A stretch of 64,000 nucleotides of DNA from a virus. Below are positions 1-63,664 of the stretch, in pieces. Below the pieces are notes generated by a model that saw only the letters and a list, made by a program, of their open reading frames with translations, ran no database searches and was not told the origin of the DNA. The position numbers and the translations under genes are program-made. Location of the stretch: positions 1-64,000 of the IMG/VR virus record IMGVR_UViG_3300028045_001344, one strand, 5' to 3'. Every line of letters starts with the position of its first letter. Position 1 is the first letter of the stretch.

Positions 1-1875
1 TCGCACTGGATCAGGCGGATAAATGTTAATTAATCTATCAACTTCATTATTAACAATGTCATTCCACATTTGAAAATAATTATTATTTGTTATTATATAG
101 GTTTCGTACATGTCACCAGGAGAACACTCACCAACACTACAATTTAATGCTTGGGCTTGAACGTGAGCTTCTGTTGTGGACCCCCATGTTTGTGCGGGTT
201 CGTCGGTGATCATAATAATATAAGGATAGGCGTCAGTGCGCCAGCTAATTCCAACAGGATCGCTAGGGTCTGTTAAAGAATCCATTACATCCCAACTTGG
301 CTCATTACCTCCACCATTACATGACATATTCAATAGTGCTGCTCGAAAGGATGCAACATCCACCAGTGAAGGTTGCGAGCGCAATTCATAACGTGCTGAT
401 GAATTGGTTTGGTACTGGCCGGGAAATGAAACAAGAGCAAATCTGTGCTCAGTGTTTTGAAACTGTGAAATGTATTGTGTTATTCCTTGTGTTAGTGCTG
501 CGATAAACGGGCACATTGAACCAGAAATGTCTATCACAAAAACCATATCAACTTTGGCGTGAGGATTTAAATCTTCGTCGATTGCCCCATCGCAATCATT
601 ATCCAAATGATCACAAATTTCGAGTTGTGGAGATACAGCGCCAATACAATCAGACCACACGCCTAGTGTGCAAGAACTAGTTCCAACGCGACATTCGCCA
701 ATTCCAGCAGTCGCAGTATTTCCACAGGTCATTCCCATTCCGTCTATAGTACCATCACAATCATCATCCCAGTTGTTGCATGTTTCTGGTGTTATGTTAT
801 AGAAATAGCATGGACCCCATGCACCATACTCATCGCACAACTCAACTCCAACACCACAATTAACAGGCGTATTTGTAACAGGATCAAGTATATTTTGATT
901 ACATATGCGAGCTTGACCAAGCACACAACTGCACCCCTCGTCAACTACACCATCGCAATCATTATCAATCATATCACAAAGTTCTGCCGTGGGCTGGACT
1001 GCATCGCAATTTACCCACGCACCGCTTGAACATTCCTCAACGCCGGAGCCACAGGCACTAGCGCATCTGCGTATCAACCCTTCATCCACTGCGCCATCAC
1101 AGTCGTTGTCCGCACCATCGCAGGTTTCGGCTTCGGGATAGATCGCATCAATACATTTTGATTCTCCGCTATCACACAGCACTCTTCCAAATGCACAAAT
1201 TCCTACTGCTTGAGATGGTCCGCAAGTTGTTCGCCTTATATCATCAACTGTCCCGTTACAGTCATCGTCAATTTCGTTACATGTTTCCGCAGTGGGAAGT
1301 GTTTGATTATTGCACGGGCCCCAACTACCATCAATACAAAATTGCTGCCCTTGTTGGCATATTGAATCTCCACCGAATACAGCCAGCGTCGGACCTCGCC
1401 AACAACTTAAAGGCGCGAGGGCTTCGTCGATCTCATCGTTACAATCATTGTCGCGCCCATCGCAAACTTCTGTTGCTGTTGGATTTACTGATTTTCGTAA
1501 ATCGTCACAATCGCCACCGCAGGAAGTATAGCCATCGTTGTCAAAATCAAATCCTTCATCAACCTCTCCATCACAATCATTATCTAAATCGTCGCAGATT
1601 TCTTCAGCGGGAGAAACAAAGCCCGCGCAAGTTTCAACGCCTTCGTCGTCACACTCAATTGTTCCAAATTGGCAAACGCCTGTTTTATAAATATCATGAT
1701 CTTTGAGGTTGTCGGCTAAAATGACTGTGCCGTTGTTGGTGATACCGCAGGGTCGATTTAAGTGGCAAACTTTGGCTATACCACTGCCGTCATCGCAAGA
1801 CGAGCACCCTTGAAGAATGGTCGCTACCGCGATGGAAAATAGAAAAACTTTGTAATAGGAAAACTTAATCCCCAC
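1..1875 (-). CDS. Lipoprotein with Cys/Asp-rich MopE-like (ExCDGxDNDCDGxxDE) repeats and C-terminal vWA domain; runs off the window edge
   Basis: Absent from the ORF track; translated by hand in segments that are all in one frame from GTG at 1875: MGIKFSYYKVFLFSIAVATILQG-C (lipobox-like), repeats such as EEICDDLDNDCDGEVDEG, and the vWA MIDAS motif DMVFVIDISGSM. Confidence 0.85.
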   Translation of the reverse strand, partial: MGIKFSYYKVFLFSIAVATILQGCSSCDDGSGIAKVCHLNRPCGITNNGTVILADNLKDHDIYKTGVCQFGTIECDDEGVETCAGFVSPAEEICDDLDNDCDGEVDEGFDFDNDGYTSCGGDCDDLRKSVNPTATEVCDGRDNDCNDEIDEALAPLSCWRGPTLAVFGGDSICQQGQQFCIDGSWGPCNNQTLPTAETCNEIDDDCNGTVDDIRRTTCGPSQAVGICAFGRVLCDSGESKCIDAIYPEAETCDGADNDCDGAVDEGLIRRCASACGSGVEECSSGAWVNCDAVQPTAELCDMIDNDCDGVVDEGCSCVLGQARICNQNILDPVTNTPVNCGVGVELCDEYGAWGPCYFYNITPETCNNWDDDCDGTIDGMGMTCGNTATAGIGECRVGTSSCTLGVWSDCIGAVSPQLEICDHLDNDCDGAIDEDLNPHAKVDMVFVIDISGSMCPFIAALTQGITQYISQFQNTEHRFALVSFPGQYQTNSSARYELRSQPSLVDVASFRAALLNMSCNGGGNEPSWDVMDSLTDPSDPVGISWRTDAYPYIIMITDEPAQTWGSTTEAHVQAQALNCSVGECSPGDMYETYIITNNNYFQMWNDIVNNEVDRLINIYPPDPVR

Positions 1876-1964: not shown

Positions 1965-2249
1965 TCATTCTTCAAGTTGTTCTTCTTCATCCCCCGCCAC
2001 GGCGAAGGCATCAGACACCCTTTTCTGCGCTGCGACTGCGCGTTCCCATCGGGCAGTACCGGGCGTAAATTCTTCTTCCTCTGGTTCTTCCGGTCCATAG
2101 CCCGCTGGGGTTACATCAGTGATCGAATACTTTCGCTTCTTTTTTTCGTAGGTGTCAACCTTACTTTGGAGGTGGGGTGGCAACACTTCTGAAAGTTTAG
2201 CAAACTCCTCTTTAATAATTTGTTTTAGTTTGGATTTTGTAATTTTCAT
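1965..2249 (-). CDS. Small hypothetical protein with MKITKSKLKQIIKEE leader (putative internal head protein)
   Basis: ORF overlaps the stop of the upstream gene; amphipathic leader ending in IxE. Confidence 0.6.
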   Translation of the reverse strand: MKITKSKLKQIIKEEFAKLSEVLPPHLQSKVDTYEKKKRKYSITDVTPAGYGPEEPEEEEFTPGTARWERAVAAQKRVSDAFAVAGDEEEQLEE

Positions 2250-2851
2250 AGGTATAGTTTTCCTTGTTGTTTTAGTTTATCAGTCATTTCTGAATTGTTT
2301 TTGCGATATAGCATGGAGATAGGTTTATGATTCCACTCGCCACCAGTCTTCTCTGCCCATCTTTGTGCAGACAGTTGGGTGCAATTGTCGGCTTCTTCTG
2401 GTGTCAAGGTGTTTTTTAGATCATCAAGTTGGATCTTCTCAATGTCATCTCGCTGGTCCATATATTTTTTCCATACTATATAGGCTTCTTCGCTTACGCC
2501 TTGTCGATCAGACATAAGACCGCTGCCGTTTTTGGTGGCATATTCCATCGCTAAATCGTAAAGAAGCGGACCCCAACCGCTGACGGCTTCGGATTTTCTT
2601 ACCTCAAAGGCTCTACTACACAAATCACCATTGATGCCCCATTGAGTAATCCAGACTTTTCCAAAAATTCTACCGAATTTGTCACGCTGTTCTTGCTGTG
2701 TTGGTTCTTCTCCCGTTGCTTCACTCACAATCTTAAACACAATGTCTTCGCCATCATCAATCATTCGAATTTGAATTCCCTCGGGTAGATCGGAAGGTTG
2801 CTTCATTCCTTCGTTAAGATAGGTGCGCCAGTTTTCAAATAAGAGTTTCAT
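2246..2851 (-). CDS. Leader-bearing GNAT-like acetyltransferase (putative virion cargo)
   Basis: MKLLFENWRTYLNE leader; GWGPLLYDLAME...LMSD...VSEEAYIVW resembles GNAT motifs A and B. Confidence 0.6.
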   Translation of the reverse strand: MKLLFENWRTYLNEGMKQPSDLPEGIQIRMIDDGEDIVFKIVSEATGEEPTQQEQRDKFGRIFGKVWITQWGINGDLCSRAFEVRKSEAVSGWGPLLYDLAMEYATKNGSGLMSDRQGVSEEAYIVWKKYMDQRDDIEKIQLDDLKNTLTPEEADNCTQLSAQRWAEKTGGEWNHKPISMLYRKNNSEMTDKLKQQGKLYL

Positions 2852-2854
2852 AAA

Positions 2855-3475
2855 TTATTTTGGTGCGGCGAGCATATCCTTTAGGCTTGGCCAAAATGTG
2901 GCAGCTAAATAAGCTTTCACTTCACCAGCCTTCACTGCTGCAAGGAGCGATTCAAAACCCGCGAAAGCGGTGTTGCCTGACTTTGCGGCTGATGCAGCAC
3001 CGACTCCTGAATATATCATTAGAAAAGCGATCAAGAGGTGAAACAATAAATCAGTAGCTTGTTTTGCTTTGGTTTCATCTTTAATTCTCAAAACCTTCTC
3101 GACAAAAAACCTAATAGGCTTGTGAAATAGGTGATGAAATTTATCTGCATAATGATTAATCTTTTCTGCTACTTTTTCAATGCCTAGATCTTTTCCTGTC
3201 CAACCTTTCACGGCGTTCCCAAACACTTTCGCAATACCTGTGAAAAGTTTCACAATCGCGGGGGCAGCAAGAGTAACGCCAAGACCAAATAATACACCTT
3301 CATCAAGTGGTTGCCTGGATTCTATCTCTTGCGCGATCTCCTCCGTAGTATCACCCACATCATCGCCAAAAAGTCCAGCGATCTTTCCAAAAGTCTTTTC
3401 TAAAAAGCGATCAAACGCTTCTTCTTCTTCGGCTTCGTTAATATAACCTCGCCATTGTTCCATTAATAGTTTCAT
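2855..3475 (-). CDS. Leader-bearing protein with hydrophobic/amphipathic helices (putative virion cargo)
   Basis: Start reassigned to MKLLMEQWRGYINE at 3475; hydrophobic segments GVLFGLGVTLAAPAIVKLF and LLFHLLIAFLMIYSGVGAA. Confidence 0.6.
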   Translation of the reverse strand: MKLLMEQWRGYINEAEEEEAFDRFLEKTFGKIAGLFGDDVGDTTEEIAQEIESRQPLDEGVLFGLGVTLAAPAIVKLFTGIAKVFGNAVKGWTGKDLGIEKVAEKINHYADKFHHLFHKPIRFFVEKVLRIKDETKAKQATDLLFHLLIAFLMIYSGVGAASAAKSGNTAFAGFESLLAAVKAGEVKAYLAATFWPSLKDMLAAPK

Positions 3476-3477
3476 AA

Positions 3478-4509
3478 TTATACCGCTGCGTTTTTCATTT
3501 CCCTTTTTCTTTTTTGCCATTTGTTTCTGGCAGCATTAAAAGTTCCCATGTCTGTTATAATTACTTTTTTATATTTGTTTTCCAGATCATATTTTTCAAT
3601 AGCTGCCATAATCTTATCCATCTTACCGATTTCGTATCTAAGTTCGCGCTTTTCGGCTGGTGTGAGGTCGCCGTGCTTCATTTTGTTAAATATCTTTTTG
3701 GTCTTTACGGCGGGTCCACCAATATAAAGAGCAGACGAATGTGGAACGTTCATAACGTTGGTGTCCACGACCCATTCGTTTTCCGCCTTAAACATTTTCG
3801 CTGCGTTGACTATCCCTGTATAAAGGATGAGCCGCATAAAACCTTTGGAGATATATTTACCTAACTCGTCTTGCTTCCACGAATCGGCTTTCTTAAGTTG
3901 GTCTTGGAGAGCCGGAAATAACAAATCAACCAGGTCTTGCAGACTATTTATGCGATCTAGGTTGGCATACAATTCTTGGGCGATAGGAGTTTTTACATCC
4001 CACTCCCTAAGAAAGTTTTGCATCGTGACCATGGCTTGGTTATCCACCTTCTCGCGTGTGACTTTCCACATCGTCTCGCCGATGTCAGCAGAATCAAAAA
4101 TATTTCCGATTACGCGCTCTGCGTGTTGTTCGTCGCCTTGATTCTTTTCCGTCAAGCGATAAAATGCTTTTAGTCCGTCTTGCGCTAGGAAATCAGGATT
4201 ATCATATTCTATTTTTACAATAGAATCGTTTATCTCGGCAAAATCTTTGCCGTCCATTACAATGGTTGCGTCTCTAATGTTGCCGTGCATTTGCATAAAA
4301 TTGGAGGGATTATCAGCAAAGCCAACGATGTCTGAGCTAGAAGCTCCGGGTGTCTTGATGACTTTATTATCTCCCAAATCTTTCATAATATCCGGTCGGT
4401 AATCGTCATCAAAATAGATGGAGATATAAAACTTCTTCGGCATAGAGACATCCGAAACATTTTCTAACTCTTTAAGATAAGAGCGCCAGTTTTCCATCAA
4501 GAGTTTCAT
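3478..4509 (-). CDS. Leader-bearing hypothetical protein (putative virion cargo)
   Basis: 343 aa ORF with MKLLMENWRSYLKE leader. Confidence 0.65.
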   Translation of the reverse strand: MKLLMENWRSYLKELENVSDVSMPKKFYISIYFDDDYRPDIMKDLGDNKVIKTPGASSSDIVGFADNPSNFMQMHGNIRDATIVMDGKDFAEINDSIVKIEYDNPDFLAQDGLKAFYRLTEKNQGDEQHAERVIGNIFDSADIGETMWKVTREKVDNQAMVTMQNFLREWDVKTPIAQELYANLDRINSLQDLVDLLFPALQDQLKKADSWKQDELGKYISKGFMRLILYTGIVNAAKMFKAENEWVVDTNVMNVPHSSALYIGGPAVKTKKIFNKMKHGDLTPAEKRELRYEIGKMDKIMAAIEKYDLENKYKKVIITDMGTFNAARNKWQKRKREMKNAAV

Positions 4510-4871
4510 TTCTTTTTTATCAACTCTTTTTTAATCACCTTAATGTTTTCGGGCTCCAAGATAATCCAGTTGTCGTCAAGTCTAACACTATCGAAACCAA
4601 GCCCATCTAATTCACCAAGAGAGTATTTATCATATTCATCCCATCCTGCTACTTTTCCCGGCTTTAGTTCCGCAGTCATCAACCACTTTGTTGATACGGC
4701 CCCACTCTCGCCACGCAAGATTTTATCCCTGTCTTCGTTAAACCAAAAAACTCCTTGAGCTGAAAACTGTTTATCAAAATCTCCAATGGGCACAGAACTT
4801 CCGTGGTAAGCGGTGACAATTTCATCTTCTTCTCGTAGATGCTTGCGCCAGTTTTCAAAGAGAACCTTCAT
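4506..4871 (-). CDS. Leader-bearing ADP-ribosyltransferase-like (ART-PolyVal type) protein
   Basis: MKVLFENWRKHLRE leader; AYHGS...FDKQFS..GVFWF...GFDSVRL...I..PENIK pattern of ART-like phage domains. Confidence 0.5.
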   Translation of the reverse strand: MKVLFENWRKHLREEDEIVTAYHGSSVPIGDFDKQFSAQGVFWFNEDRDKILRGESGAVSTKWLMTAELKPGKVAGWDEYDKYSLGELDGLGFDSVRLDDNWIILEPENIKVIKKELIKKK

Positions 4872-5503
4872 GGTTGAACCACATTCACTCCCTTGGGTCG
4901 GCCTAATAAAATCTTCATATGTATGCTTCCGCCAAGCTTGCGCTTATACCAGCCAGGATGGTTTGGGTATTTTCCTTCTGGGTGTGGTCCAATCCATTCT
5001 ATATCTTTTCCTAAAACTTTTCGCACGTCTTCTTCGTTATCAACGAAGGGAACATTATGATACTTAATCATTACGTGGGCAATCGCATCCGACAACTCAC
5101 CATAGTTTCCTTCTGTATTTAATAATTCAGCAGTCTTTTCTTTGTATGCTTTTATGCCTTCTGATCCACCATCGGAGGCACCAACGGTCATTTTAATTCC
5201 TGCTGGTTTTGTTTTTGCGCCTCTCACTGCATCGGGTTCGGGGTCAGCATCCACATCAACTGCCAGCCACTTATCATAATCCGATGGCATATCACTAGCA
5301 GATCGAATATCCACATTTCCACCAATCTTTGCGTAAGATTTGTCAATCATAGCATAGATCTCATCGGTAATATCAATATTGTCTGGATCGTTTGTTAGCT
5401 CGTCGGTGGGAAGCTCAACCCATTTATTCTTTTTGCCGTCGCTATAATCAGCAAACACCTTTTCGTCTAAATATTTTCGCCAACCTTCAAATAATAACTT
5501 CAT
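4868..5503 (-). CDS. Leader-bearing hypothetical protein (putative virion cargo)
   Basis: MKLLFEGWRKYLDE at 5503 with a GAGG RBS; the ORF extends upstream to an ATG at 5575. Confidence 0.65.
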   Translation of the reverse strand: MKLLFEGWRKYLDEKVFADYSDGKKNKWVELPTDELTNDPDNIDITDEIYAMIDKSYAKIGGNVDIRSASDMPSDYDKWLAVDVDADPEPDAVRGAKTKPAGIKMTVGASDGGSEGIKAYKEKTAELLNTEGNYGELSDAIAHVMIKYHNVPFVDNEEDVRKVLGKDIEWIGPHPEGKYPNHPGWYKRKLGGSIHMKILLGRPKGVNVVQP

Positions 5504-5579
5504 CGTTTTCCCTCGGTCTTTTTCATTTTGAATCTCCGCACTAAGAAGTTGTTCTAATGAAAACTTATCTACCATATAC

Positions 5580-5587
5580 TAAATAGT
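5580..5587 (-). promoter_or_regulatory. Late promoter motif ACTATTTA inside the leader-protein array
   Basis: Same motif, intergenic. Confidence 0.6.
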
Positions 5588-5590
5588 TTC

Positions 5591-6424
5591 TTAAAATGTC
5601 TCTTGCTCTACCTCTTTGATTACAGCAGCAGGTAAGTTCTTTTTAGCGTAGCCAATAATAGATTGACGGTAATCGTTTTTGAAGAAATCTGTTACTTCAT
5701 CTTTTGTATATCGAACTTCACCCTTGGCGAGTTCTTTGGGATGGGCATAAAAATTAATAAATTCTCCAATAGAATCGTCTAACTTCGCTGAGAAAGGAAC
5801 TTTAGACATTTTTGCTCGTTTGTAAGTTCCACGAGCATATGCTTCAATTTCAGACGGGTCAAGGTAATAAAGACCAAGAGCATCAATGGAGGCTAATCCA
5901 CCTTGAAACGCTTTCTTTTGTTGTTTTCCGGCTTTTTTTAATACGTCGATAGATTGTCCACCGTGCGTAAGTTCGTGAACCGTGGTATCTTTCATCTTTT
6001 CTATGAGTTCGGACATATCACCTATTCTAAACTCATCTGAAAGAGACACATTGACGGCTACGATACGATCACGCACCATTTCACCATCAGAATCATCATC
6101 AGAAGTCATCGTCTGCCCACTGACACTAAACTTTTTGCCTTCTCCAAAAGCAGTGGAAGGTTCAACTCGTAATTGAAAAGTTATTTTCTTGATACCCTCC
6201 TCCTCTAGAGATTTTGGAAGGCCACCAAAGTATTTGTTATCATATGCAACGCTCTCAAGTGGATGTTTTATGGACCCAAAACGGGGTTTAATGCGGGGCT
6301 CCCCTTTGTTGGCACTCAGGTGATCTTTAATCTTATTCACGATATTTCTTACCATCGTTGTTGCTTCGCCTTCAAACTTGGCTTCTTTTAGCACTTTCCG
6401 CCAGTTTTCAAATAAGAGTTTCAT
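5591..6424 (-). CDS. Leader-bearing zincin (HExxH) metallopeptidase-like protein
   Basis: MKLLFENWRKVLKE leader; TTVHELTH plus downstream YYLDPSEIEAYARG (candidate third-ligand Glu). Confidence 0.65.
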   Translation of the reverse strand: MKLLFENWRKVLKEAKFEGEATTMVRNIVNKIKDHLSANKGEPRIKPRFGSIKHPLESVAYDNKYFGGLPKSLEEEGIKKITFQLRVEPSTAFGEGKKFSVSGQTMTSDDDSDGEMVRDRIVAVNVSLSDEFRIGDMSELIEKMKDTTVHELTHGGQSIDVLKKAGKQQKKAFQGGLASIDALGLYYLDPSEIEAYARGTYKRAKMSKVPFSAKLDDSIGEFINFYAHPKELAKGEVRYTKDEVTDFFKNDYRQSIIGYAKKNLPAAVIKEVEQETF

Positions 6425-6449
6425 TAAAATGTCTCCTGCTCTCCGTCTT
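5591..6449. repeat. 26-bp imperfect direct repeat (5591-5616 and 6424-6449) flanking the metallopeptidase gene
   Basis: ttaaaatgtctcttgctctacctctt vs ttaaaatgtctcctgctctccgtctt (23/26); both encode EQETF*. Confidence 0.8.
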
Positions 6450-6741
6450 CATAAGTTATAATTGTTTTGTTGGAAGGGTGAGGATTAATATGAACCTTAA
6501 TAAAATCGTCCATTGAATCAAAGATCGCAATTCCTCCGCGTGGTGGTGGATAGAGCCAATGAATGATGGCTTGTCCACTTGCTAATTTAGCGCCCTCAAT
6601 CACAACACCCGCGCCGGAAACGCCAGTTTGATCCTCGTCGCGATAAACTGTGAAAGTTCGAATACCTCTTGGTGCCAAGGATGAAGGAGGGCTAGGCTTT
6701 AGTTCTTCTAATGCCTCCGCGTGTTTCTTTTTTGTGGTCAA
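6424..6741 (-). CDS. Conserved-looking phage hypothetical protein (RxxDxxGVSGxGxVxEG motif)
   Basis: 105 aa ORF; RDEDQTGVSGAGVVIEG motif recalled from phage hypothetical proteins. Confidence 0.6.
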   Translation of the reverse strand: MTTKKKHAEALEELKPSPPSSLAPRGIRTFTVYRDEDQTGVSGAGVVIEGAKLASGQAIIHWLYPPPRGGIAIFDSMDDFIKVHINPHPSNKTIITYEDGEQETF

Positions 6742-6743
6742 AA

Positions 6744-7442
6744 CTAACTTCCCCCTGCACCGGGGGGTGCCGAACCTTTATAGTTAGACTTGAGCTGTTT
6801 CCAGCCTGGAAGTTTTGTTTGTGCGTTTTTCTTTTTGGTGGGAGTGATGACTTGATTTATTTCTTTGTTTGCTCTGTGAGATGTAATGGGGTAATCATTT
6901 TCGTCTAGTTCTTCTTCCTCAGTTTTTTTCTTGGGACCAAAAAATATTATATTGTCGCCCGCTATGCCAATCTCAAAATTAGCCGGAAGATTCTTTTTTA
7001 AGAAGCGCAAATACATTTTAGTACGTGTGGTTTGACCTTTGCTGCCAACTTCCCCGCCCTTATCAATCCCTTCAAATACAAAACGCAAAATTCCCCGATT
7101 CACTTCAGGGTTTGAAATAAAATCATTAACAATCGCTACAACAGTAGACATAATTCGTAAAGGGTGTCCCTCTCCTGTCTGTTTCATAGACGCATCGGCT
7201 TCAAAGTCCAAGGTCCATATAGGGACTTTTCGTTTGACATATTCACCATCTTCCCAAGTTGTGCTTTTTTTGAAAAACACTTGATAGTCACTTCCGTCTT
7301 CCCCGTTTGGATCATCCGACGACACAAAATTATATTCTACTTCGTATTCATCATTAGAGCCAAGTTCCCAGTCAAAAGGTTCTGCGCTTGCATCGCCAAT
7401 CTCTTTAAGATAGTTGCGCCAACTTTCAATCAATAGTTTCAT
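6744..7442 (-). CDS. Leader-bearing hypothetical protein (putative virion cargo)
   Basis: MKLLIESWRNYLKE leader; 232 aa. Confidence 0.65.
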   Translation of the reverse strand: MKLLIESWRNYLKEIGDASAEPFDWELGSNDEYEVEYNFVSSDDPNGEDGSDYQVFFKKSTTWEDGEYVKRKVPIWTLDFEADASMKQTGEGHPLRIMSTVVAIVNDFISNPEVNRGILRFVFEGIDKGGEVGSKGQTTRTKMYLRFLKKNLPANFEIGIAGDNIIFFGPKKKTEEEELDENDYPITSHRANKEINQVITPTKKKNAQTKLPGWKQLKSNYKGSAPPGAGGS

Positions 7443-8052
7443 CTTTTACCAACTCCTTGTTTACAATCGTGTATCCTTGGACTTCGCCTATGTTGATAAA
7501 ATCAAACTGATCCAGGATAACCATTTTCTGTGGGCAATTCGTTTTGTTATTAAGATAGAAGCAAGAAATCTGTCCTACAATTTCGCTAAACAATGCCGGG
7601 ACAGCCACCGGAGGAACCATTTTGACATGAGCATTGTATGCTTTTATTTCCCCACCATAGGAAAAAGGAACTTTCCTTTGGACGTGTCCGCCAAAGTCGT
7701 GAACAGTTCTAAATTTAGCATTTGTTTCGGCGTCAAAAATTGGATGTTCTGCGTCAGCCGTAGACACAAGAAGAACGCCATCTTCCTGCACTTGCTTGAT
7801 CATTTGTTTAGAAGATTTATAAGGATGATAATCAACAAACTCTACATCAACTACACCAACCACCCTTTCAAAGAACTTATTAACCCACTCACCTAATGCC
7901 TCATAACTTGCCTTGGCTCCTGGTTGTTCCATCGGGGCATCTATATATGCCTGACCAACTAATTGACGATAGAGATCCCATCCGTTCTCACCAGGCTTAA
8001 GCATTAATTTCTCATTAATATACCCGCGCCAATTTTCAAATAATAGTTTCAT
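7426..8052 (-). CDS. Leader-bearing protein with NxxFRxVHDxxGH motif (possible metal-binding domain)
   Basis: MKLLFENWRGYINE leader; NAKFRTVHDFGGH...GEIKAY. Confidence 0.55.
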   Translation of the reverse strand: MKLLFENWRGYINEKLMLKPGENGWDLYRQLVGQAYIDAPMEQPGAKASYEALGEWVNKFFERVVGVVDVEFVDYHPYKSSKQMIKQVQEDGVLLVSTADAEHPIFDAETNAKFRTVHDFGGHVQRKVPFSYGGEIKAYNAHVKMVPPVAVPALFSEIVGQISCFYLNNKTNCPQKMVILDQFDFINIGEVQGYTIVNKELVKDETID

Positions 8053-8816
8053 AGTTCTCCCACTTGTTCTGGTGAAAGAATTTTTACGTGCGGCATATTC
8101 ATCTTCTTATGAAAAGTCTTTGTTAAGTAATTGTGAGAGATCTTAGGAGCGATGACGGCAGTTATTTTCCAATTATCTACAAACGCTTCATTCCAATTGC
8201 TGTCCTTGACAATACGAGGCTTCCAATCTTCTTCATCAAAGACAAAGATCTGGTCCACATAATCTACACAGCGATAAGAAATTCCTACACCCTTGTTTGC
8301 TCCTGATGACTTTGTTCTTTCAGGATTAGCCAAAGTATAATCCACCCCTGCACCACTCATAACATCGTTCATGTCATTAGCCAACAAACTGATATGACCA
8401 TCTACCACAAACCCATAATCGCCCCAGGTAGAAGGTGTTACCTCTCCGGGTAAGTATGCGGCACAACTTAACTCGTCTTTGCTAGAACCTTTTAAGAGTC
8501 TAGCACTTCCCATTCTATCTGTCCAGTGAATTGTTATGAGACTGTTTAAGAAAGCACGATCAGCGTATTTGTTATATGTTTTTTTAATTCCGCGTCCGGT
8601 TTTGATAACTTCAGGATAATCACTGTCCATCACAGGGTTCCGCATCCGATCAAATCCGCCCATTTTGCACAAGGCTTTCGCAAATTCTTCACGAGTGTTG
8701 TCATCTTCCTTCAGGAATTTACGCCAGTTTTCAATTAAGATCTTCATATCTTTTGATCCTCCGACTACTTGTTCCAAGTCTTCATCGGTAAGTTCTCCGT
8801 CATCATTTTCCATCAC
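8049..8816 (-). CDS. Leader-bearing hypothetical protein, preceded in frame by a double-glycine-type leader peptide
   Basis: ELTDEDLEQVVGG, then MKILIENWRKFLKE (internal ATG at 8747 with a GGAGG RBS). Confidence 0.6.
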   Translation of the reverse strand: MMENDDGELTDEDLEQVVGGSKDMKILIENWRKFLKEDDNTREEFAKALCKMGGFDRMRNPVMDSDYPEVIKTGRGIKKTYNKYADRAFLNSLITIHWTDRMGSARLLKGSSKDELSCAAYLPGEVTPSTWGDYGFVVDGHISLLANDMNDVMSGAGVDYTLANPERTKSSGANKGVGISYRCVDYVDQIFVFDEEDWKPRIVKDSNWNEAFVDNWKITAVIAPKISHNYLTKTFHKKMNMPHVKILSPEQVGEL

Positions 8817-9027
8817 TCTTGAGGTATTGGGTTAGTTCTTTTTTTTGAGAGGTAGTCAAGGTTTTGCTCAAGACTTCCTTGACGCTAGTGAACGGAGCTT
8901 CTATAAAAGTTTTTCTATCCGCATCACAATAGGGGCAATTCATAAAAATACCTTTTCTTATTCCACCAAGACACAACGAACACTGCGCTTTTATATAAAG
9001 CACATGTTCGTCGCTGTCGTCGCTCAC
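8803..9027 (-). CDS. Small zinc-finger protein (CxxC...CxxC)
   Basis: CSLC...CPYC; late motif immediately upstream. Confidence 0.55.
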   Translation of the reverse strand: MSDDSDEHVLYIKAQCSLCLGGIRKGIFMNCPYCDADRKTFIEAPFTSVKEVLSKTLTTSQKKELTQYLKSDGK

Positions 9028-9032
9028 TTATA

Positions 9033-9040
9033 TAAATAGT
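9033..9040 (-). promoter_or_regulatory. Late promoter motif ACTATTTA heading the leader-protein array
   Basis: Same motif, downstream of the hsp20 terminator. Confidence 0.6.
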
Positions 9041-9063: not shown

Positions 9064-9095
9064 AAAAAAAGGGCATCTTGCAAGCAAGACACCCT
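9064..9095 (-). terminator. Rho-independent terminator downstream of hsp20
   Basis: Minus-strand hairpin GGGTGTCTTGC-TT-GCAAGATGCCC followed by T7. Confidence 0.75.
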
Positions 9096-9122: not shown

Positions 9123-9530
9123 TTACTTAATCTTAATTTGTCGTGGCTTGGTGGCTTCACTCTTTGGGAGCGTCACCACAAGAACCCCGCTTTTATAAGA
9201 CGCGCAAATGTTTTCAACATCACAACCGTTCGGAAGTTCATAACTTTTTGAATATTTAGTTGCGTAAGCGTAGTGATCTTTTTTGTCACCCACATCGTAA
9301 CTCACAGTTAATACCGAATTTTCCAGTGCGATGTTAAAATCTTTCTTTTCCAATCCTGGTGCTGCTAAAGAGATTTCATAATCTTCTTCATTCTCGCGCA
9401 CGGTGGGGGCATGTCGATCCCGTGATTGTTTTACCAACGGAGATTTATAAATCTCACCCCATCCATTAAACATTTCATCCAAAATGTTTAGCCCATAGTT
9501 CTTGTTATCCCTAAATGTCAATGCAGTCAT
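9123..9530 (-). CDS. hsp20: Small heat-shock protein, Hsp20/alpha-crystallin family
   Basis: YEISLAAPGLEKKDF...ASYKSGVLVVTLPK...IKIK; start at 9530 has an AGGAGG RBS. Confidence 0.92.
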   Translation of the reverse strand: MTALTFRDNKNYGLNILDEMFNGWGEIYKSPLVKQSRDRHAPTVRENEEDYEISLAAPGLEKKDFNIALENSVLTVSYDVGDKKDHYAYATKYSKSYELPNGCDVENICASYKSGVLVVTLPKSEATKPRQIKIK

Positions 9531-9549
9531 TCTTGCATCCTCCTTGTGC

Positions 9550-9579
9550 ATAATAAAAGCACGGTTTGGTTAGCGTCAA
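9550..9579 (-). promoter_or_regulatory. Sigma70-like promoter upstream of hsp20
   Basis: TTGACG-N18-TATTAT on the minus strand. Confidence 0.55.
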
Positions 9580-11046: not shown

Positions 11047-11340
11047 CTATTGAAGGAGACTGATTATATAAGCACCCACGGAACCAACCAGCACAGAAAG
11101 AATGAGCCATGTAATTTTATCGCCTCTTTTCTTTTCTTCCTCAACTACACGCAAGCGAGCATAAAGACCTTTGTCGGGATTATAAACGGCTTCTTTGATT
11201 TTGGACACGTCTGCACTCATAGTTGTTTGGCTATTATTAATAATTTCAATAGCAGATAAAAGCTTTTCTTCAAGTGAGGTTATGCGAGCGCATAATTCAT
11301 AAACTTTGACTTCACTTTGAGATGGGTTTTTATCAGGCAT
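11047..11340 (-). CDS. Coiled-coil protein with C-terminal TM helix (holin/XhlA-like candidate)
   Basis: C-terminal ITWLILSVLVGSVGAYIISLL; late motif 4 nt upstream. Confidence 0.5.
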   Translation of the reverse strand: MPDKNPSQSEVKVYELCARITSLEEKLLSAIEIINNSQTTMSADVSKIKEAVYNPDKGLYARLRVVEEEKKRGDKITWLILSVLVGSVGAYIISLLQ

Positions 11341-11344
11341 ACAC

Positions 11345-11352
11345 TAAATAGT
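11345..11352 (-). promoter_or_regulatory. Late promoter motif ACTATTTA
   Basis: Same motif, 4 nt from an ATG. Confidence 0.6.
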
Positions 11353-11358
11353 GGTTAG

Positions 11359-12933
11359 TTACGGCTTTTGCTCCACAATTCCCACATCAGTGGTCAATAA
11401 TGTTGATGCCGCCGAAGCTGCGTTTTGGAGAGCGCATCGAGTAACCTTGAATGGATCAATAATACCATAAGTAAACATATTTACTATTTCCCCTGTAGAA
11501 ATGTCCAAGCCAGATTCAGGGTTCGTATGAGTTTCTACCTTCTCTAAATAAATGTCGGGAGACAACCCGGCATTGGAAACCATTTTTCTGAATGGCTCCT
11601 TGATTGCTTGCTTTACAATGTCCACTCCAATTTGTTGTTCGTGTGTTTCGGTTTCCACCTCGATCTTCTTTGCTACTCGCAACAAAGGTGCAGAGCCACC
11701 AGCCATGATGCCTTCTTGCTGCGCTGAATGGACTGCTTCCAAGGCATCTTCAACTCTGTGTTTCTTTTCCATCATTTCTATTTCAGTGATACCACCTACT
11801 TTAATAACAGCAATAGCTGACGCAAGGCGCGTTATTCTTTCTTGTATCTTTTCGCATATATTAAGACTAGACTCCTTTTCAATCTCCTCTTTTAGCAACT
11901 CAATTCTCTTCTCCACTTCTTCATCGTCTTGGTTGCCACCAACAATAATGGTTGCTCTCTTGTCCGACTCAATACTTTGGGCTGTGCCAAAGTGTGGTAG
12001 TGTGATATCTTTGAGATGAAGTCCGCTTTCTCGTGATATAAAAGTTGCTCCCGTTGAAATGGCTAAGTCCGCTAATATATTTCTCCTTTCCTCTCCGTAA
12101 CGCGGTGCTTTGATCCCTGCTACTCGCATAGATCCTTTCATAGAATTCATAATCATGGCAGCAAGAGCTTGGCCTGAGATATCTTCTGCAATAATAATAA
12201 ATGCTCGACCATCTCGTGCCGCGATTTCTAATGACGGTAGGATATCATCAATGGTGGTGATATTTTTATCTGTTACCAAAATTAAACAATCTTCATGTTT
12301 CATTACCCCGCGACGTTCATCAGTGATGAATGCATTGGCAAGTAACCCCGAATCAAATTGAAAACCCTCGGTCAACTCTAAAGAAGTTTCATTGGACTTG
12401 GCTTCTTTGATTGTTATTGCTCCGCCCTTACCAACCTGATCAACAGCACTAGCAATCAGTTTTCCAATCCCCTTATCACCATTCGCAGAAATCGTGGCTA
12501 CTTGTTCAATTTCTTCTTTAGTGGAAACAGGACGAGAGTGCTCTTTTAGTTCAGTCACAATCGCATCCACAGCCAAATCAATTCCGCGTTTCAATTCTAT
12601 AGGAGAGGCACCTGTGACCAAATGTGTCTGCGCTTTCTGAAGAATTGCCCTAGCCAAAACTGTTGCGGTAGTGGTTCCGTCACCCGCCATGGAGTTAGTT
12701 ACTTCGCTGGCTTGCTTAATAACTTGAGCCCCAAGATTTTCAAAGGGATCTTCGAACTCAACAAACCTCGCAACCGTCACACCATCTTTTGTTATAAGAG
12801 GTCGTTGATTGTGGTTCTTTAGTATTACATTCCTGCCACGAGGACCGAGTGTTGCGCCAACTGCGTCGGCTAACTTGTCCACACCGTTCATTATGGCTTC
12901 GTTTAGTTTTCTTCCCGATCTATAATGCTTCAT
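11359..12933 (-). CDS. groEL: Chaperonin GroEL
   Basis: TLGPRGRNV, ITKDGVTVA and GDGTTTATVLA motifs. Confidence 0.97.
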   Translation of the reverse strand: MKHYRSGRKLNEAIMNGVDKLADAVGATLGPRGRNVILKNHNQRPLITKDGVTVARFVEFEDPFENLGAQVIKQASEVTNSMAGDGTTTATVLARAILQKAQTHLVTGASPIELKRGIDLAVDAIVTELKEHSRPVSTKEEIEQVATISANGDKGIGKLIASAVDQVGKGGAITIKEAKSNETSLELTEGFQFDSGLLANAFITDERRGVMKHEDCLILVTDKNITTIDDILPSLEIAARDGRAFIIIAEDISGQALAAMIMNSMKGSMRVAGIKAPRYGEERRNILADLAISTGATFISRESGLHLKDITLPHFGTAQSIESDKRATIIVGGNQDDEEVEKRIELLKEEIEKESSLNICEKIQERITRLASAIAVIKVGGITEIEMMEKKHRVEDALEAVHSAQQEGIMAGGSAPLLRVAKKIEVETETHEQQIGVDIVKQAIKEPFRKMVSNAGLSPDIYLEKVETHTNPESGLDISTGEIVNMFTYGIIDPFKVTRCALQNAASAASTLLTTDVGIVEQKP

Positions 12934-14449
12934 TTACTTTGGCTCCCTTTGCGCGGTTCGCCTTCCTTGGAATGAGGCGTCCATTGTCGGGAGTTGTTGT
13001 TCCACCTTGAGCCACCGGAACTATATGATCCGCTTCGATATGTTTTGTTTGAGAAAAAACATCGCTAGCTGCAATATCGGGATCAACGTGACCCTCGACG
13101 AACATGGCTCGTTTTTGGCTCTTTGAATAGGCATCTTTGGATTTTCTGATTTTAGAAATTGCGCCTTTCTCGATGAAATCCGTTTCCACCGTTGCAAACC
13201 ACTCTTTGATTTTGTTCTCTCTCATTTCCCAAGTCATCACTATTTTTTTGTTTCCAGTTGGCACACCCTCGGAATCTATTTCCTTCGCGGTTCGCTGGGA
13301 GAAGTAGAAATAATAAGAAGCATTTACAAAGGATTCTGTTTCCTTCTCAAAGTCGGTCCACCCCCTGGTGGCTTCATCTTCCTCAGTCCTCCACAAAAAG
13401 CCTAAATATGCATCAAGAACCGCTTTATAGTCTTTAATCTTATAAACATTCTCAATGCAATTACTTACAAGGAGCCACATATTGCTCCACTGTCCTTTGA
13501 GAAGACTTTTTGTGCTTTGGTCTTTGAGCATATTTGCCATTGTAGATAAAATATCTTTGGTTCTTTTCTCCAACTTTTCATTAATATTTTTAGTCTGATA
13601 ATAAAAAGAATCTAATGAGGCATCGTTGCATGGCATTACACCCGCACTCGCGCCCGATTTGGCATATTCATACATCAAGTGTTGTGCAAAGATCTTATCA
13701 GTTTCGCGTTTTTGAGCCTCACTGTTACTCATTACACATGTAAATGCCGCACGGGTTCCTAATTTTTCATCTAAATCCGCGCATTTTCTTACAAACGAAG
13801 CAATATTGCCGCCATTATACGCATTTCGACAATCTTGTTTACTCCAAACCAATGAAGAATTAACTGAAATTATATTTTTATGCAAAAGGTCAACGGTGGC
13901 TCCGATGATTATTTTTATAGAAATTTTTTTAGACATAAAATATTGTTGTAAGTCTTCAGGAAGCGCAGTAAACTTTTTATCCTTTTTTTGACCAGGAACC
14001 TTAACAGTAAATCTGCCCTCAACATAGGCATTAAGATAAGATAAAGTATTATGAGCATCTTCGATCAAATATTTCGCAGTGAGCGAATCTTCTCCCATTT
14101 CAGAATTGGGCAAAATCTTGTGTGAAAGCTTGATAAAATATTCGGCATCTGATGCTTTATTATTTCGATTGCAATAAGCTATTACTGCTGGCAAATCAAC
14201 CGCGATAATTTGATTTAGGTTCAGATTTAGAAAAACGTTCTGAATGTATTCTTTGCCTTTTTTAAGATTCCAACCCGCCCCACGGCTAACTGCGTTGCCA
14301 GTCTCGGAATGATAAGTGACACCACCCCACCTTTGTCTGTCAAAGTCCACATAGCTTCGAGCAAAGATGGCAAGAGCTTGTTGGATTGTAATTTCTTGGG
14401 AATCGTATTTGAGAGAGAGCCCCTCAAGTGTTTGAATAATGTTCGTCAT
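12920..14449 (-). CDS. DUF262/GmrS-like N-terminus with C-terminal HNH endonuclease
   Basis: C-terminal IEADHIVPVAQGGTTTPDNGRLIPRKANRAKG (HNH); N-terminal QR and IEDAHN motifs resemble degenerate DUF262. Confidence 0.65.
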   Translation of the reverse strand: MTNIIQTLEGLSLKYDSQEITIQQALAIFARSYVDFDRQRWGGVTYHSETGNAVSRGAGWNLKKGKEYIQNVFLNLNLNQIIAVDLPAVIAYCNRNNKASDAEYFIKLSHKILPNSEMGEDSLTAKYLIEDAHNTLSYLNAYVEGRFTVKVPGQKKDKKFTALPEDLQQYFMSKKISIKIIIGATVDLLHKNIISVNSSLVWSKQDCRNAYNGGNIASFVRKCADLDEKLGTRAAFTCVMSNSEAQKRETDKIFAQHLMYEYAKSGASAGVMPCNDASLDSFYYQTKNINEKLEKRTKDILSTMANMLKDQSTKSLLKGQWSNMWLLVSNCIENVYKIKDYKAVLDAYLGFLWRTEEDEATRGWTDFEKETESFVNASYYFYFSQRTAKEIDSEGVPTGNKKIVMTWEMRENKIKEWFATVETDFIEKGAISKIRKSKDAYSKSQKRAMFVEGHVDPDIAASDVFSQTKHIEADHIVPVAQGGTTTPDNGRLIPRKANRAKGAKVNEAL

Positions 14450-14542
14450 TATGACCTCCGTCGCGATAACCTACGCGATTTTGTATTTTAATTTTCAAAG
14501 TGCCTCTTTAAACTAAAAGACAAACTCTGAATTGTTCTACGA

Positions 14543-15544
14543 CTATATCATACCTTTAGAATTTTTTGTAGAATTTTTTATTCTTTTTGTTGCCATTTCA
14601 AAATACTTTTCATCGTTTTCAACACCAATAAAGAGTCGCCCTTCTTGGATAGCAACAACTCCGGTTGTACCAGACCCCATGCAACAATCCAACACAACAT
14701 CGCCCTCATTAGAATAAGTTTTAATAATGTAAGACATAAGTTCTTCCGGTTTTTGTGTTGGGTGGCCACCTGTCTCGGATTTTCTAATCCTCGGATTTGA
14801 AATTTTTATCACGCTTCGGGCATGGCGAAAGCCAGCGTTCTCTTTAATAATGTCGTTGGATTGAACTCCATAACAAGAAGATTTGTTTTTCCATGGTTTT
14901 CTTACCCACCCCGTCTTTTCCAATTCCTCTAGGGAAGCAGCAGTATACCCCTCTTTCTTCTTTTCGTTTTCAATTTTCACATATGCTGCTTCGTCAATTA
15001 GTGTTTTTTCTTCCTCAGTCTTCAAATGAACCCATATTGAATTGCCATTCTTAGTTATACAATATTTTTTTTTATCAATTTCCTCAAAAAATTGATCATC
15101 CCCATTATATTTTTTTAACTTTCTATGAATGGAGTAAGGCTTGCCTTTAGTTTTTTGTTCATTGTAGGTTGCTTTGGGTTTAGAGAATATTATAATATGT
15201 TCATGACTTCTCATAGGTTGCCGTTTGACATTTAGTTGACCCGAAGATATTGTTTTCTCCCAAATTAGGTCATATCTGAATTTTAGTGTCTTACAAAAGT
15301 CCTTATTAGACGTGATCAAACTTGTCACGAAAGGCTGAGTTGCGGTTAGCACAACCATCCCGTTAGGGACAACTATACGCTCAAAAGCCTCCCACATTTT
15401 TTCTAAATTGATTATTGCATCCCATCTATTGTTTGTAGTTCCATAAGGTAAATCAGCGGCAACCAACTGCACAGATGAATCAGGGAGAGTTGACATAACT
15501 TTCAAACAATCCCCAAACATTAATTTATACCCCTCTTTTTTCAT
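14543..15544 (-). CDS. N4-C/N6-A DNA methyltransferase (beta class)
   Basis: GDCL...ADLPYG...HPTQKPEELM...VLDCCMGSGTTG. Confidence 0.92.
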   Translation of the reverse strand: MKKEGYKLMFGDCLKVMSTLPDSSVQLVAADLPYGTTNNRWDAIINLEKMWEAFERIVVPNGMVVLTATQPFVTSLITSNKDFCKTLKFRYDLIWEKTISSGQLNVKRQPMRSHEHIIIFSKPKATYNEQKTKGKPYSIHRKLKKYNGDDQFFEEIDKKKYCITKNGNSIWVHLKTEEEKTLIDEAAYVKIENEKKKEGYTAASLEELEKTGWVRKPWKNKSSCYGVQSNDIIKENAGFRHARSVIKISNPRIRKSETGGHPTQKPEELMSYIIKTYSNEGDVVLDCCMGSGTTGVVAIQEGRLFIGVENDEKYFEMATKRIKNSTKNSKGMI

Positions 15545-16121: not shown

Positions 16122-16124
16122 GTT

Positions 16125-62408: not shown

Positions 62409-63623
62409 TTAAATAATGCCCGCAAGTCGCCTCAGTCTATCGACTTGATTTTGACCAGCGGGTTGTTTTTCTTTATTTGATTTCAATATAAGCGGATTGT
62501 TTTTATTCACTGCTTCATTCAATGTCTTCGGAGCAGTCTTGCTCTTGGACGAAAGATTTTCATTCAATGTATCATAAACAATCTTGGCTTCTTCTACTGA
62601 ACCAACTTTTGAAATTGCTTCGACAAGTTTTTCTTTTTGTCGCTCATTCAAGGAGTCGCTTTTCAGGATGCGATTCGTGTAGATTAATTTTGCGTTAGAA
62701 AAATTAACTTCTTCTAACTTCTTTGTTGCCTTTAGTGCAATACTCTTAAGATTATCAAAATCTTTTTTCTGCTTATTCAATTTAAGCTTCTGAGATTTAT
62801 TTTGCTCTTGCAACTTCTTTAATGCTTGGCGCAATTGTTCTTGCTCCTCTGCAAATTCTGTGTCTTGTTCTTGCGCTAAAGCAATATCAAGACCTCGTTC
62901 GTTTTGTCCCATAGTTGGGTGTGTATGAAAGATATCCCCGGAAGGAACATTCTTCATATCGACTACTAATGCCTCGACGATTTCATCAAGTAGTTCTTCG
63001 TCAAGTTCTTCGTTCTCATCAATTTCTTGTTCTCTCGAATCCTCAAAAATTTCAGGGGCGATTTTTTCAGCACCCTCGTTTTTGGGTTTGTCTTTCTTTT
63101 CTTCTTCTTTAGATTGTTTAATGGCTTTATCTCGCGATCCTTTCCATTCAGCTTCTTTAGATTCAACTTCGCCATCACCATCATAATCCTCGTAGGCATC
63201 TTCCTCATTCAGTGCTTGGGCAATTGCCTCAAGAAGATTGTCCTCGCTCACTTCAAAGAGTTCTTCTTCGTCGGCAGCAACTTCACCACCAAGATCCATT
63301 TCTTCTTCGCTCTCGGCTGCTTGTGCTGCCGCGACTATTTGATCTAGATCAAGAACCATTGGCTCTTCTTCTTCGGGGCACGGACACATGTTCTCGCCAT
63401 CGGTCGCAGCAATCGGCATTTGATCGGCGATGCCTGGTTCCGCATCAAGACCTTCCTCGTCTTCCATACCAAACATATCTTCCTCTTGTTCTAAAAGGGA
63501 TGTGACGGCTTCTTTGATTTCTCCTGAATACTTTTCGAGAACTTCTTGTTCTGCGTTTTTCATCGCCGCTTCTCGAAGTGCTTCGGCGTCAATGACGGCT
63601 TGATCTAACATAGTTGATGACAT
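62409..63623 (-). CDS. Prohead core/scaffold protein
   Basis: Acidic coiled coil directly upstream of the capsid gene; many LxE sites; C-terminal RLRRLAGII. Confidence 0.8.
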   Translation of the reverse strand: MSSTMLDQAVIDAEALREAAMKNAEQEVLEKYSGEIKEAVTSLLEQEEDMFGMEDEEGLDAEPGIADQMPIAATDGENMCPCPEEEEPMVLDLDQIVAAAQAAESEEEMDLGGEVAADEEELFEVSEDNLLEAIAQALNEEDAYEDYDGDGEVESKEAEWKGSRDKAIKQSKEEEKKDKPKNEGAEKIAPEIFEDSREQEIDENEELDEELLDEIVEALVVDMKNVPSGDIFHTHPTMGQNERGLDIALAQEQDTEFAEEQEQLRQALKKLQEQNKSQKLKLNKQKKDFDNLKSIALKATKKLEEVNFSNAKLIYTNRILKSDSLNERQKEKLVEAISKVGSVEEAKIVYDTLNENLSSKSKTAPKTLNEAVNKNNPLILKSNKEKQPAGQNQVDRLRRLAGII

Positions 63624-63656: not shown

Positions 63657-63664
63657 TAAATAGT
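63657..63664 (-). promoter_or_regulatory. Late promoter motif ACTATTTA (scaffold/capsid operon)
   Basis: Recurring motif upstream of structural genes. Confidence 0.65.

Follow-up and report, generated by a model that had tools for sequence, protein, structure and literature searches.

Two leader peptides on unrelated proteins

The DNA analyzed here is a window of 64,000 nucleotides (positions 1 to 64,000 of IMG/VR virus record IMGVR_UViG_3300028045_001344), which is the first 64 kb of one 151,553-bp viral contig; about 141 of the 145 open reading frames (ORFs) of this genome are on the minus strand. Nine minus-strand genes at 2246-8747 start with the same 14-residue peptide, MKLLFENWRxYLxE (leader A), and were numbered A1 to A9. 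A preliminary description of this DNA had proposed that nine nearly consecutive genes share the start MK[LVI]L[FMI]E[NQGS]WRx[YHVF][LI]xE as an address tag for loading into the phage head, and all nine fit this pattern exactly. When all Met-started 16-mers of the whole genome were clustered without any motif, the same family was recovered as the largest N-terminal family, with 11 members, the extra two genes starting outside the array at genome positions 80296 and 85503 (the latter being A11, genome 84664-85503), and the reversed leader-A pattern, used as a control, gave 0 matches. It had also been claimed that the bodies behind the tag are unrelated and that similarity stops at the last Glu; this was borne out by BLASTP, with the pair A1 and A11 as the sole exception (30% identity, E=6e-13). 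The tripeptide motif [LI]xE ends at residue 14 in 10 of the 11 leader-A proteins. The array, previously delimited as 1965-8816, keeps its nine tags, but the gene at 1965-2249 has another leader (MKITKSKLKQIIKEE) and the ORFs at 6424-6741 and 8803-9027 have no tag. Codons of leader A vary synonymously (CTC, CTA, TTA, or TTG for Leu; CGC, CGA, CGG, or CGT for Arg) while the residues are fixed, and the DNA 5' of each leader-A ATG is unrelated between genes, which suggests that selection acts on the tag peptide and not on a DNA cassette.

The second family obtained by the unbiased 16-mer clustering, leader B (MKITKSQLKxIIxEE; MKITKSKLKQIIKEE and relatives), heads genes that start at 2249, 80691, 80943, and 70545 (genome coordinates), those outside the array lying at 80293-80943 and 69553-70545. 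In 4/4 leader-B proteins of this genome I-x-E occupies residues 12-14. The 330-amino-acid (aa) leader-B protein (69553-70545) is encoded directly downstream of the prohead protease, and genes flanking the protease also carry leader-A-like N-termini in genomes G017 and G030.

The spread of both leaders in IMG/VR was surveyed with one degenerate DNA pattern per leader, and the resulting totals are lower bounds. Leader A was found in at least 118 stretches, comprising at least 171 ORFs at no fewer than 115 loci, often in tandem. Among the matches listed, its consensus is MKLL[LFM]ENWR[KEQ][YF][LI][NKT]E, column conservation across 171 viral homologues collapses at residue 15, and 164 bodies fall into at least 89 BLASTP clusters, 58 of which are singletons. 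Leader B was found in at least 119 stretches with at least 208 short and extremely diverse ORFs (median 106 aa), whose bodies, among the matches listed, form at least 169 clusters (189 bodies). Together, the two tags head more than 400 IMG/VR ORFs with hundreds of unrelated bodies, and they co-occur in at least 21 loci. A scan of whole genomes gave 1 to 8 copies of leader A in complete relatives, compared with 11 here. The tagged clade comes mostly from environmental metagenomes. In 596 Gb of cellular genomes only 8 stretches with the tag were detected, in taxonomically scattered bins of metagenome-assembled genomes; seven of them are on short contigs and one is a single match in a 1.2-Mb contig, which gives no clue to the host. 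On these distributions, both tags are virus-specific and clade-specific.

Head module, cleavage motif and exchange of tags

PHROG and Pfam matches identify the genome as that of a myovirus (tail sheath, baseplate hub, and gp23-type capsid), and by the same profile matches the phage can be classified as a distant relative of T4 with a gp20 portal, a gp23 capsid, and a gp21-type (S77) prohead protease. The Gp23 profile match has E=3e-70, while Portal_T4 (PF07230, E=1e-78) and Peptidase_S77 (PF03420, E=4.4e-30; gp21-family prohead protease, genome 70550-71149) lie just beyond the window. The closest named capsids are those of Microcystis phage Mel-JY01, Flavobacterium phage immuto, and Rhodothermus phage RM378, with 41-48% identity over partial length. 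Among the near-complete tagged genomes tested, S77 protease is present in 8/8 with leader A and 4/4 with leader B, and a gp23 of about 600 aa in 8/8 with leader A.

In T4, gp21 cuts after L/I-x-E, and a 10-residue capsid-targeting sequence (CTS), the start of IPIII, suffices for head loading, residues 4 and 7 serving targeting and residues 8 and 10 processing (PMC9026906). The sequence cited for it in the preliminary description, MKTYQEFIAE, was confirmed from the T4 record, where IPII and IPIII start MKTYQEFIAE^A (^ marks the cleavage point). Residues Y4, F7, I8, and E10 of the T4 CTS fall on W8, Y/F11, L/I12, and E14 when aligned with leader A; in leader B their counterparts are L8, I11, I12, and E14. 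The spacing common to all three is hydrophobic-x-x-hydrophobic-[LI]-x-E. The tag had been called a distinct targeting signal; it is not entirely so, its second half having the spacing of the T4 CTS. As the first database pattern fixed Glu at position 14, the fetched loci were re-scanned with a looser motif. This gave 57 leaders free of any search-pattern constraint at positions 10-16, and in 39 of them [LI]xE ends at residues 13-16, versus 4.4% expected from the bodies of the same proteins. Position 11 was left free by the pattern throughout, and 162 of 170 leader-A proteins among the matches listed have Tyr or Phe there.

Cleavage motifs are also found in the head proteins themselves. The capsid site KELLRE^A, pointed out earlier, is present and takes the form ...ELL[R/K]E^[A/N/S]S, upstream of a VRR...VQPM core, here and in eight relatives; its T4 counterpart is FLTE65^A. 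The scaffold had likewise been said to carry (L/I)xE sites, and its 17 sites place it fifth in [LI]xE density among 145 ORFs, with a 137-aa core protein second and a 278-aa protein encoded after the portal fourth. Such high densities in head-operon proteins match the multiply cut T4 core proteins.

The exchange of tags between homologous bodies is, in our opinion, the strongest new evidence in this analysis. The A4 body, which has an ADP-ribosyltransferase (ART) fold, has 68 database homologues, of which 12 carry leader A, 12 a B-like leader (...KKTAAQLDAEIAEAL), and 12 a T4-CTS-like start (e.g., MKTFSEFLSE, MKFKEYLTE, and MLSFKQFLTE), the others being leaderless. One of these homologues heads three consecutive genes that start MLSFKQFLTE, MKSFKEILAE, and MKTFKEFIKE on a 157-kb phage contig whose replication genes are T4-like (RNase H, type II topoisomerase subunits, and endonuclease V). 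Since homologues are found in both, an A4-type body occurs in the T4-CTS array of another phage as well as in the leader-A array here. In the fetched loci, 16 homologous pairs of an A body and a B body were detected, one of which has 37% identity over 160 aa, starting from the first post-tag residues. On these alignments, tags A and B and a near-canonical T4 CTS are interchangeable. In addition, database homologues P0006, P0007, and P0003 are fusions in which an A6 relative follows an A4-type ART or some other domain, and the joint contains a leader remnant, ...IENRDNLKE^AKFENE, in which Trp is lost and L-K-E^A is kept, as would be expected if Trp serves N-terminal docking and L-x-E serves cleavage. 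It is possible that such fusions under one leader A are protease-jointed polyproteins.

The promoter-like motif ACTATTTA had been noted at 9033 and 5580 as one that also precedes structural genes. Both copies are present, and the motif is also located 5' of the scaffold-capsid operon. The window contains 11 copies versus 2.5 expected, and the genome 21 on the coding strand and 1 on the other. Of these, about 13 are intergenic, and the genes they precede include those of the scaffold-capsid operon, the adaptor, tail, and baseplate genes, and A11, whereas none in the genome is intergenic 5' of replication genes, the copy near the helicase being inside the preceding exonuclease ORF. In 7/8 complete relatives the motif is found 29-58 nt 5' of the scaffold gene with AGGAG in between, and in about 1 Mb of related loci it occurs 210 times on the gene strand versus 9 times on the other. 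Sigma-70-like sites are not enriched (29 versus 22.5 +/- 4.7 in shuffles). From this distribution we infer that ACTATTTA is the promoter of the clade for virion genes.

With regard to its spacing, ACTATTTA lies 4-8 nt from the start codon in 14 of the 33 leader-A starts with a nearby motif in related loci (L003-L120), and close sites of this kind are found in the window at 9027-9040, 5575-5587, and 11340-11352. The conserved GTG start of the zinc-ribbon ORF is 5 nt past the motif here and 7 nt past it in the syntenic viral locus L065. If ACTATTTA is a -10-type element, mRNAs with such spacing would be leaderless.

Array genes, predicted cargo functions and neighbouring genes

The features of the array and of the adjoining head genes are listed in the table.

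Table. Array and head-gene features of the window (for A1 to A9 the higher coordinate is the leader-A start codon).
Feature	Coordinates	Strand	Remarks
Intrinsic terminator, 11-bp stem and T-run, ends the upstream Hsp20 unit	9070..9095	-	Similar hairpin at the same place in L065
ACTATTTA promoter-like motif heading the array	9033..9040	-	After the terminator
Small leaderless 4-Cys zinc-ribbon ORF of 74 aa that opens the unit	8803..9027	-	L065 homologue, 51% identity
A9: leader A (MKILIENWRKFLKE) and 218-aa body, no assigned function	8049..8747	-	GGAGGA ribosome-binding site (RBS) 9 nt 5' of ATG
A8: leader A and phrog_3170-related body	7426..8052	-	
A7: leader A and body without assigned function	6744..7442	-	
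Leaderless 105-aa ORF, fixed point in the variable island	6424..6741	-	70-86% identity in relatives
A6: leader A and body with invariant HExxHGGQ	5591..6424	-	
Second ACTATTTA, inside the array, 5' of A5	5580..5587	-	
A5: leader A (MKLLFEGWRKYLDE) and body	4868..5503	-	Leader-A-bearing homologues in four viral contigs
A4: leader A and minimal ~105-aa body of predicted ART fold, PARP-like, YHGS motif	4506..4871	-	
A3: leader A and 329-aa body without assigned function	3478..4509	-	
A2: leader A and body with strongly hydrophobic, transmembrane-like segment	2855..3475	-	
A1: leader A and body homologous to A11	2246..2851	-	
Last gene of the unit, 94 aa, leader B (MKITKSKLKQIIKEE)	1965..2249	-	
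gp23-type major capsid protein, 606 aa	60573..62393	-	Propeptide-end site ...ELLRE^AS, residues 55-59
Acidic scaffold-like protein, 5' of the capsid gene	62409..63623	-	17 [LI]xE sites; ACTATTTA at 63657-63664

The array genes encode single-body proteins of 121-343 aa, multi-domain fusions being found only in relatives. Pfam and PHROG scans of the nine bodies returned almost nothing, and blastn of the array against 50,697 phage records gave no match. Among the cargo functions suggested previously, that of ART for A4 stood. Homologues of A4 with 55-63% identity carry PF18760 (ART-PolyVal), although A4 itself has no Pfam match at E<=0.1 and no tblastn match in named phages. In its AlphaFold2 (AF2) model (pLDDT 85.5) the leader forms a low-confidence helix that stands apart from the fold, and in a PDB search with this model the top 19 matches at E<=0.001 are tankyrase/PARP ART domains, the best being those of tankyrase and PARP4 (E ~3e-4). 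H23 and Y80 are invariant in the family, and Y22, S25, and E79 nearly so, as read from the alignment. Based on family profile and model, A4 can be assigned as a probable PARP-like (H-Y-E type) ADP-ribosyltransferase.

The other labels did not hold to the same extent. HExxHGGQ of A6 is invariant in 10 homologues, and the zincin call is based on this HExxH motif; A6 has no Pfam match and no Foldseek match, its VIA matches are at helical-bundle level only (Z<=6), and atlas leads are below 0.9. For A1 and A11, no Acetyltransf match was found in Pfam, and a PDB acetyltransferase match at E=0.28 and an atlas cluster with PF00583 in 15% of its members provide a weak lead to GNAT. The label 'membrane-active' for A2 derives from hydropathy, with a maximum of 2.05 in a 19-residue Kyte-Doolittle window and two such stretches by eye. 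The A8 domain also occurs inside gp205 of Rhodococcus phage E3, which is annotated as 'structural protein'. For 92 representatives of tagged bodies, the few Pfam matches comprise P-loop/Zeta-toxin-like kinases, NUDIX, protein kinase, GNAT, HD, GDSL lipase, ART-PolyVal, and RNA-repair domains.

The start of A5 is uncertain, an in-frame ATG being located at 5575, 4 nt past a ACTATTTA copy. A double-glycine-like LEQVVGG 5' of A9 was considered and rejected, as it is the GGAGGA ribosome-binding site translated in frame.

Comparison with L065 suggests that the array locus (1965-9040) is a hypervariable cargo island. The two loci have GroEL (82% identity), Hsp20, the zinc-ribbon gene, and the 105-aa ORF in common, but the slot between the latter two contains a NUDIX gene and a leader-A P-loop kinase gene in L065 and A9, A8, and A7 here; an A7-like gene of L065 is on the opposite side of the 105-aa ORF. 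The C-terminus of A7 (6744-6830) and that of an unrelated L065 cargo (13640-13729) have the same tail, PGWK...Y[KR]G[AS]PPGA[GS]G, ahead of this conserved ORF, which is probably a recombination joint within coding sequence. Elsewhere in the genome, a promoter-RBS-ATG cassette of about 55 nt is duplicated (84560-84660 and 85470-85560). Its copy 1 starts A11, whereas copy 2 leads into MKLTKSKL, the start of a bodiless 41-aa ORF (a leader-B stub) that precedes a gene for a 1047-aa nuclease-like protein, and the duplication looks like a scar of cassette turnover.

Several neighbouring genes were also recorded. Hsp20 (9123-9551), GroEL (11359-12933), and ClpP (19868-20509) are phage-encoded, ClpP being separate from the head protease. 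Adjoining GroEL is a DNA-modification cluster (12920-17060, minus strand). Its products are a protein of 509 aa with HNH as the C-terminal domain, a DNA methyltransferase matching phrog_67 at E=2.5e-74, and, by a match to phrog_1384, a Mom-like DNA modification protein. A tubulin/FtsZ-like gene (71154-72362, minus strand; PF00091 E=2.4e-6, under the curated cut-off) is located in the head operon just 5' of the protease, and window interval 39565-40440 is listed with it; eight relatives do not have it at that position, where G017 has a leader-A gene. At 1-1875 (minus strand, running off the contig end) lies a gene for a large protein with Cys-rich CDGxDNDCDGxxDE-type repeats and a C-terminal vWA-like region, homologues of which occur in seven related viral loci (27-30% identity). 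The clade protease starts M[SG]KKLLREYYEL (L239-L246) and T4 gp21 starts ...QLLIETWG (L251:6449-7087), both of which resemble MKLLFENW, the first half of leader A; this likeness is short, chance may account for it, and the tag could also copy the prohead-targeting N-terminus of the protease.

Interpretation and relation to known systems

Considering all of the above, it is reasonably probable that leaders A and B are T4-type capsid-targeting propeptides that load exchangeable cargo into the head, are clipped, and let the cargo be delivered, the tag most likely being a longer relative of the 'load then clip' signal of T4. Docking, clipping, packaging, and injection are what we infer from the sequences. 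Late in infection, tagged proteins would be made alongside the head proteins, and an amphipathic N-terminal helix would dock them onto the scaffold/core of the assembling prohead. The gp21-family (S77) protease would then cut after the Glu of (L/I)-x-E at residues 12-14, so that mature cargo is freed inside the head and exits with the DNA at the next infection, while bodies (enzymes such as the PARP-like ART) would be exchanged behind a constant tag in the island. Such a tag system is supported by the presence of S77, the (L/I)xE edge of the leaders, their co-occurrence with S77, the tag swaps, and ACTATTTA at the scaffold-capsid operon. The overlap of tagged-cargo domains with the repertoire predicted for injected effectors (PMC5512222) also counts for it, as do the strong terminator that the array has of its own, the virus- and clade-specific spread of both tags, the tag-like N-termini beside the protease gene, the [LI]xE density of head-operon proteins, the leader remnant in fusions, and the detached leader in the A4 model. 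The original idea of an address tag on swappable cargo tied to a gp21-type protease is thus partly supported, the indirect tests run being all in its favour.

Several observations weigh against capsid targeting and delivery. The co-occurrence of tags and S77 may simply reflect shared ancestry, and GroEL and one or two ClpP genes, found in 12/12 clade genomes tested, are as universal as S77. No [LI]xE is present within 30 residues in 10 of the 57 unconstrained leaders, and the likeness of the leaders to the T4 CTS lies in spacing, the peptide being too short for demonstrable homology. Neither leader, searched by tblastn as a 20-residue peptide, has a real match among named phages, and the tag patterns were not found in Mel-JY01 or immuto. 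The array lies outside the head module, and most tagged bodies are acidic (median pI 5.0), in contrast to the internal proteins (IPs) of T4, which are basic and bind DNA. It is also possible that A2, A5, and A9 start at in-frame upstream codons, which would make their tags internal. Finally, the role of ACTATTTA as a late promoter is assumed, and the motif is sometimes only 4-8 nt from the start codon.

The alternative that survives best, which we nevertheless consider unlikely, is that the tag targets proteins to the prohead core and is clipped there with no delivery to follow, the cargo acting in assembly or in the head, or being zymogens until the tag is removed. All evidence that connects the tag with S77 and head genes fits this explanation equally well; the acidic bodies differ from the DNA-associated, ejected IPs of T4, and gp67 and gp68 of the T4 core are targeted and cut without being delivered (PMC9026906). 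On the other hand, the bodies are hypervariable between close relatives, which is typical of host-interaction genes and not of assembly factors, ART, kinase, NUDIX, and RNA-repair domains have no obvious role inside a capsid, and Alt of T4, a CTS-bearing ART, is injected (PMC9026906, PMC5512222).

Less probable again is that the tag docks onto another partner and the capsid is not involved, whether as a ClpP degron or adaptor signal, as a mark of GroEL/Hsp20 clients, or for phage-tubulin localisation. Besides the universality of GroEL and ClpP, this explanation can draw on the positions of GroEL and Hsp20, which adjoin the array here, and of the tubulin-like gene beside the protease. However, leaderless relatives have such partners too (GroEL in immuto and ClpP in Mel-JY01), the arrays of relatives do not adjoin GroEL, and the (L/I)xE edge, the swaps with the T4 CTS, the retention of LKE after loss of Trp, and ACTATTTA at head genes would be left unexplained. 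GroEL is not known to recognise N-terminal tags. A DNA-level recombination joint or translation-initiation cassette, in which the shared start has no peptide function, could be suspected from the duplicated cassette around A11 and the shuffling of cargo at the locus, but it is very improbable and largely refuted by the synonymous codons, fixed residues, and unrelated upstream DNA, as well as by residue conservation across 207 non-identical proteins in highly diverged genomes. A recognition leader of the type found in ribosomally synthesized and post-translationally modified peptides, read by a co-encoded modifying enzyme such as a radical-SAM/SPASM maturase, would also place one short conserved leader on many unrelated proteins, but is scarcely credible, as no Radical_SAM match was found here or in 8/11 complete tagged relatives and the three matches are far from arrays.

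A broader proposal can also be made, to which we would give not quite an even chance. The clade would possess a modular system for addressing capsid cargo, in which hundreds of unrelated cargo families carry one of at least three interchangeable tags (A, B, or T4-CTS-like), effectors are recruited by tag gain, and cargo can be joined into polyproteins that the prohead protease cuts at L-x-E joints, and tag A would combine a protease-like half (KLLxExW/Y) with a CTS-like half (WxxYLxE).

The closest known system is the T4 CTS of IPI, IPII, IPIII, and Alt, which is processed by gp21 (Mullaney & Black 1996; reviewed in PMC9026906 and PMC3012670). Both comprise a short N-terminal peptide on unrelated proteins with an L/I-x-E end, the same spacing, and an S77 protease; in both, one cargo is an ART (Alt in T4) and the genes are scattered outside the head module. 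The tags here differ in having 14 instead of 10 residues, an extra invariant MKLLxE.W half, and two classes per genome, and there are about 15 tagged genes, T4 having about 4. Most of the cargo proteins are acidic and of enzyme size (median 200 aa), whereas T4 IPs are small, basic proteins; the ART would be PARP-like, of the H-Y-E type, instead of Alt-like; and the tag system is known from sequence alone. The internal-protein loci of T-even phages have been described as 'a highly diverse set ... with only a conserved CTS' (PMC3012670), and the island resembles them in its hypervariability, conserved flanks, constant leader, and slot cargo that differs between close relatives, although it belongs to an uncultured clade with another host range and the diversity is on a larger scale, with no fewer than 89 clusters of bodies behind tag A and at least 169 behind tag B.

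Ejection and inner-body proteins of phiKZ, 201phi2-1, and SPN3US are also cut after Glu by a gp21 homologue, have conserved N-termini, and include some transmembrane cargo, but cutting is at S/A-x-E, their propeptides often exceed 100 residues, and most of these proteins are paralogues (PMC5694885, PMC9026906). In the Dar system of P1, an N-terminal signal is likewise sufficient to load an anti-defence protein into the head; however, P1 has no tag shared by many proteins and no gp21-type clipping of a common leader, and its loading depends stepwise on other Dar proteins. Polyvalent proteins of phages and conjugative elements, whose domains are predicted to be injected with DNA (Iyer et al. 2017, PMC5512222), have in common with the cargo here ART-PolyVal, GNAT, NUDIX, kinase, metallopeptidase-like, and RNA-repair domains as well as fusions (the A4+A6 relatives), whereas here mostly separate small proteins each carry a tag instead of one giant polypeptide. 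A full-text search of the literature found no paper describing CTS-like tags in metagenomic phages. As far as sequence comparison indicates, the longer tags, the two classes, the much larger enzyme-rich arrays, and the uncultured clade are new with respect to the T4 CTS and internal-protein system.

Capsid-carried proteins act before any phage gene expression and are known for a handful of cultured phages, and they are prime candidates for first-strike host takeover and anti-defence. If the capsid-targeting reading is true, a 14-residue motif would mark hundreds of proteins in uncultured phages (ARTs, kinases, NUDIX and RNA-repair proteins, and unknown folds) as candidates for injection, and the tags would provide a sequence-only route to the injected-effector repertoire of uncultured phages as well as new targeting peptides for packaging proteins in phage capsids. 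The CTS principle of T4 would then be ancient, diversified, and far more used outside the T-even phages.

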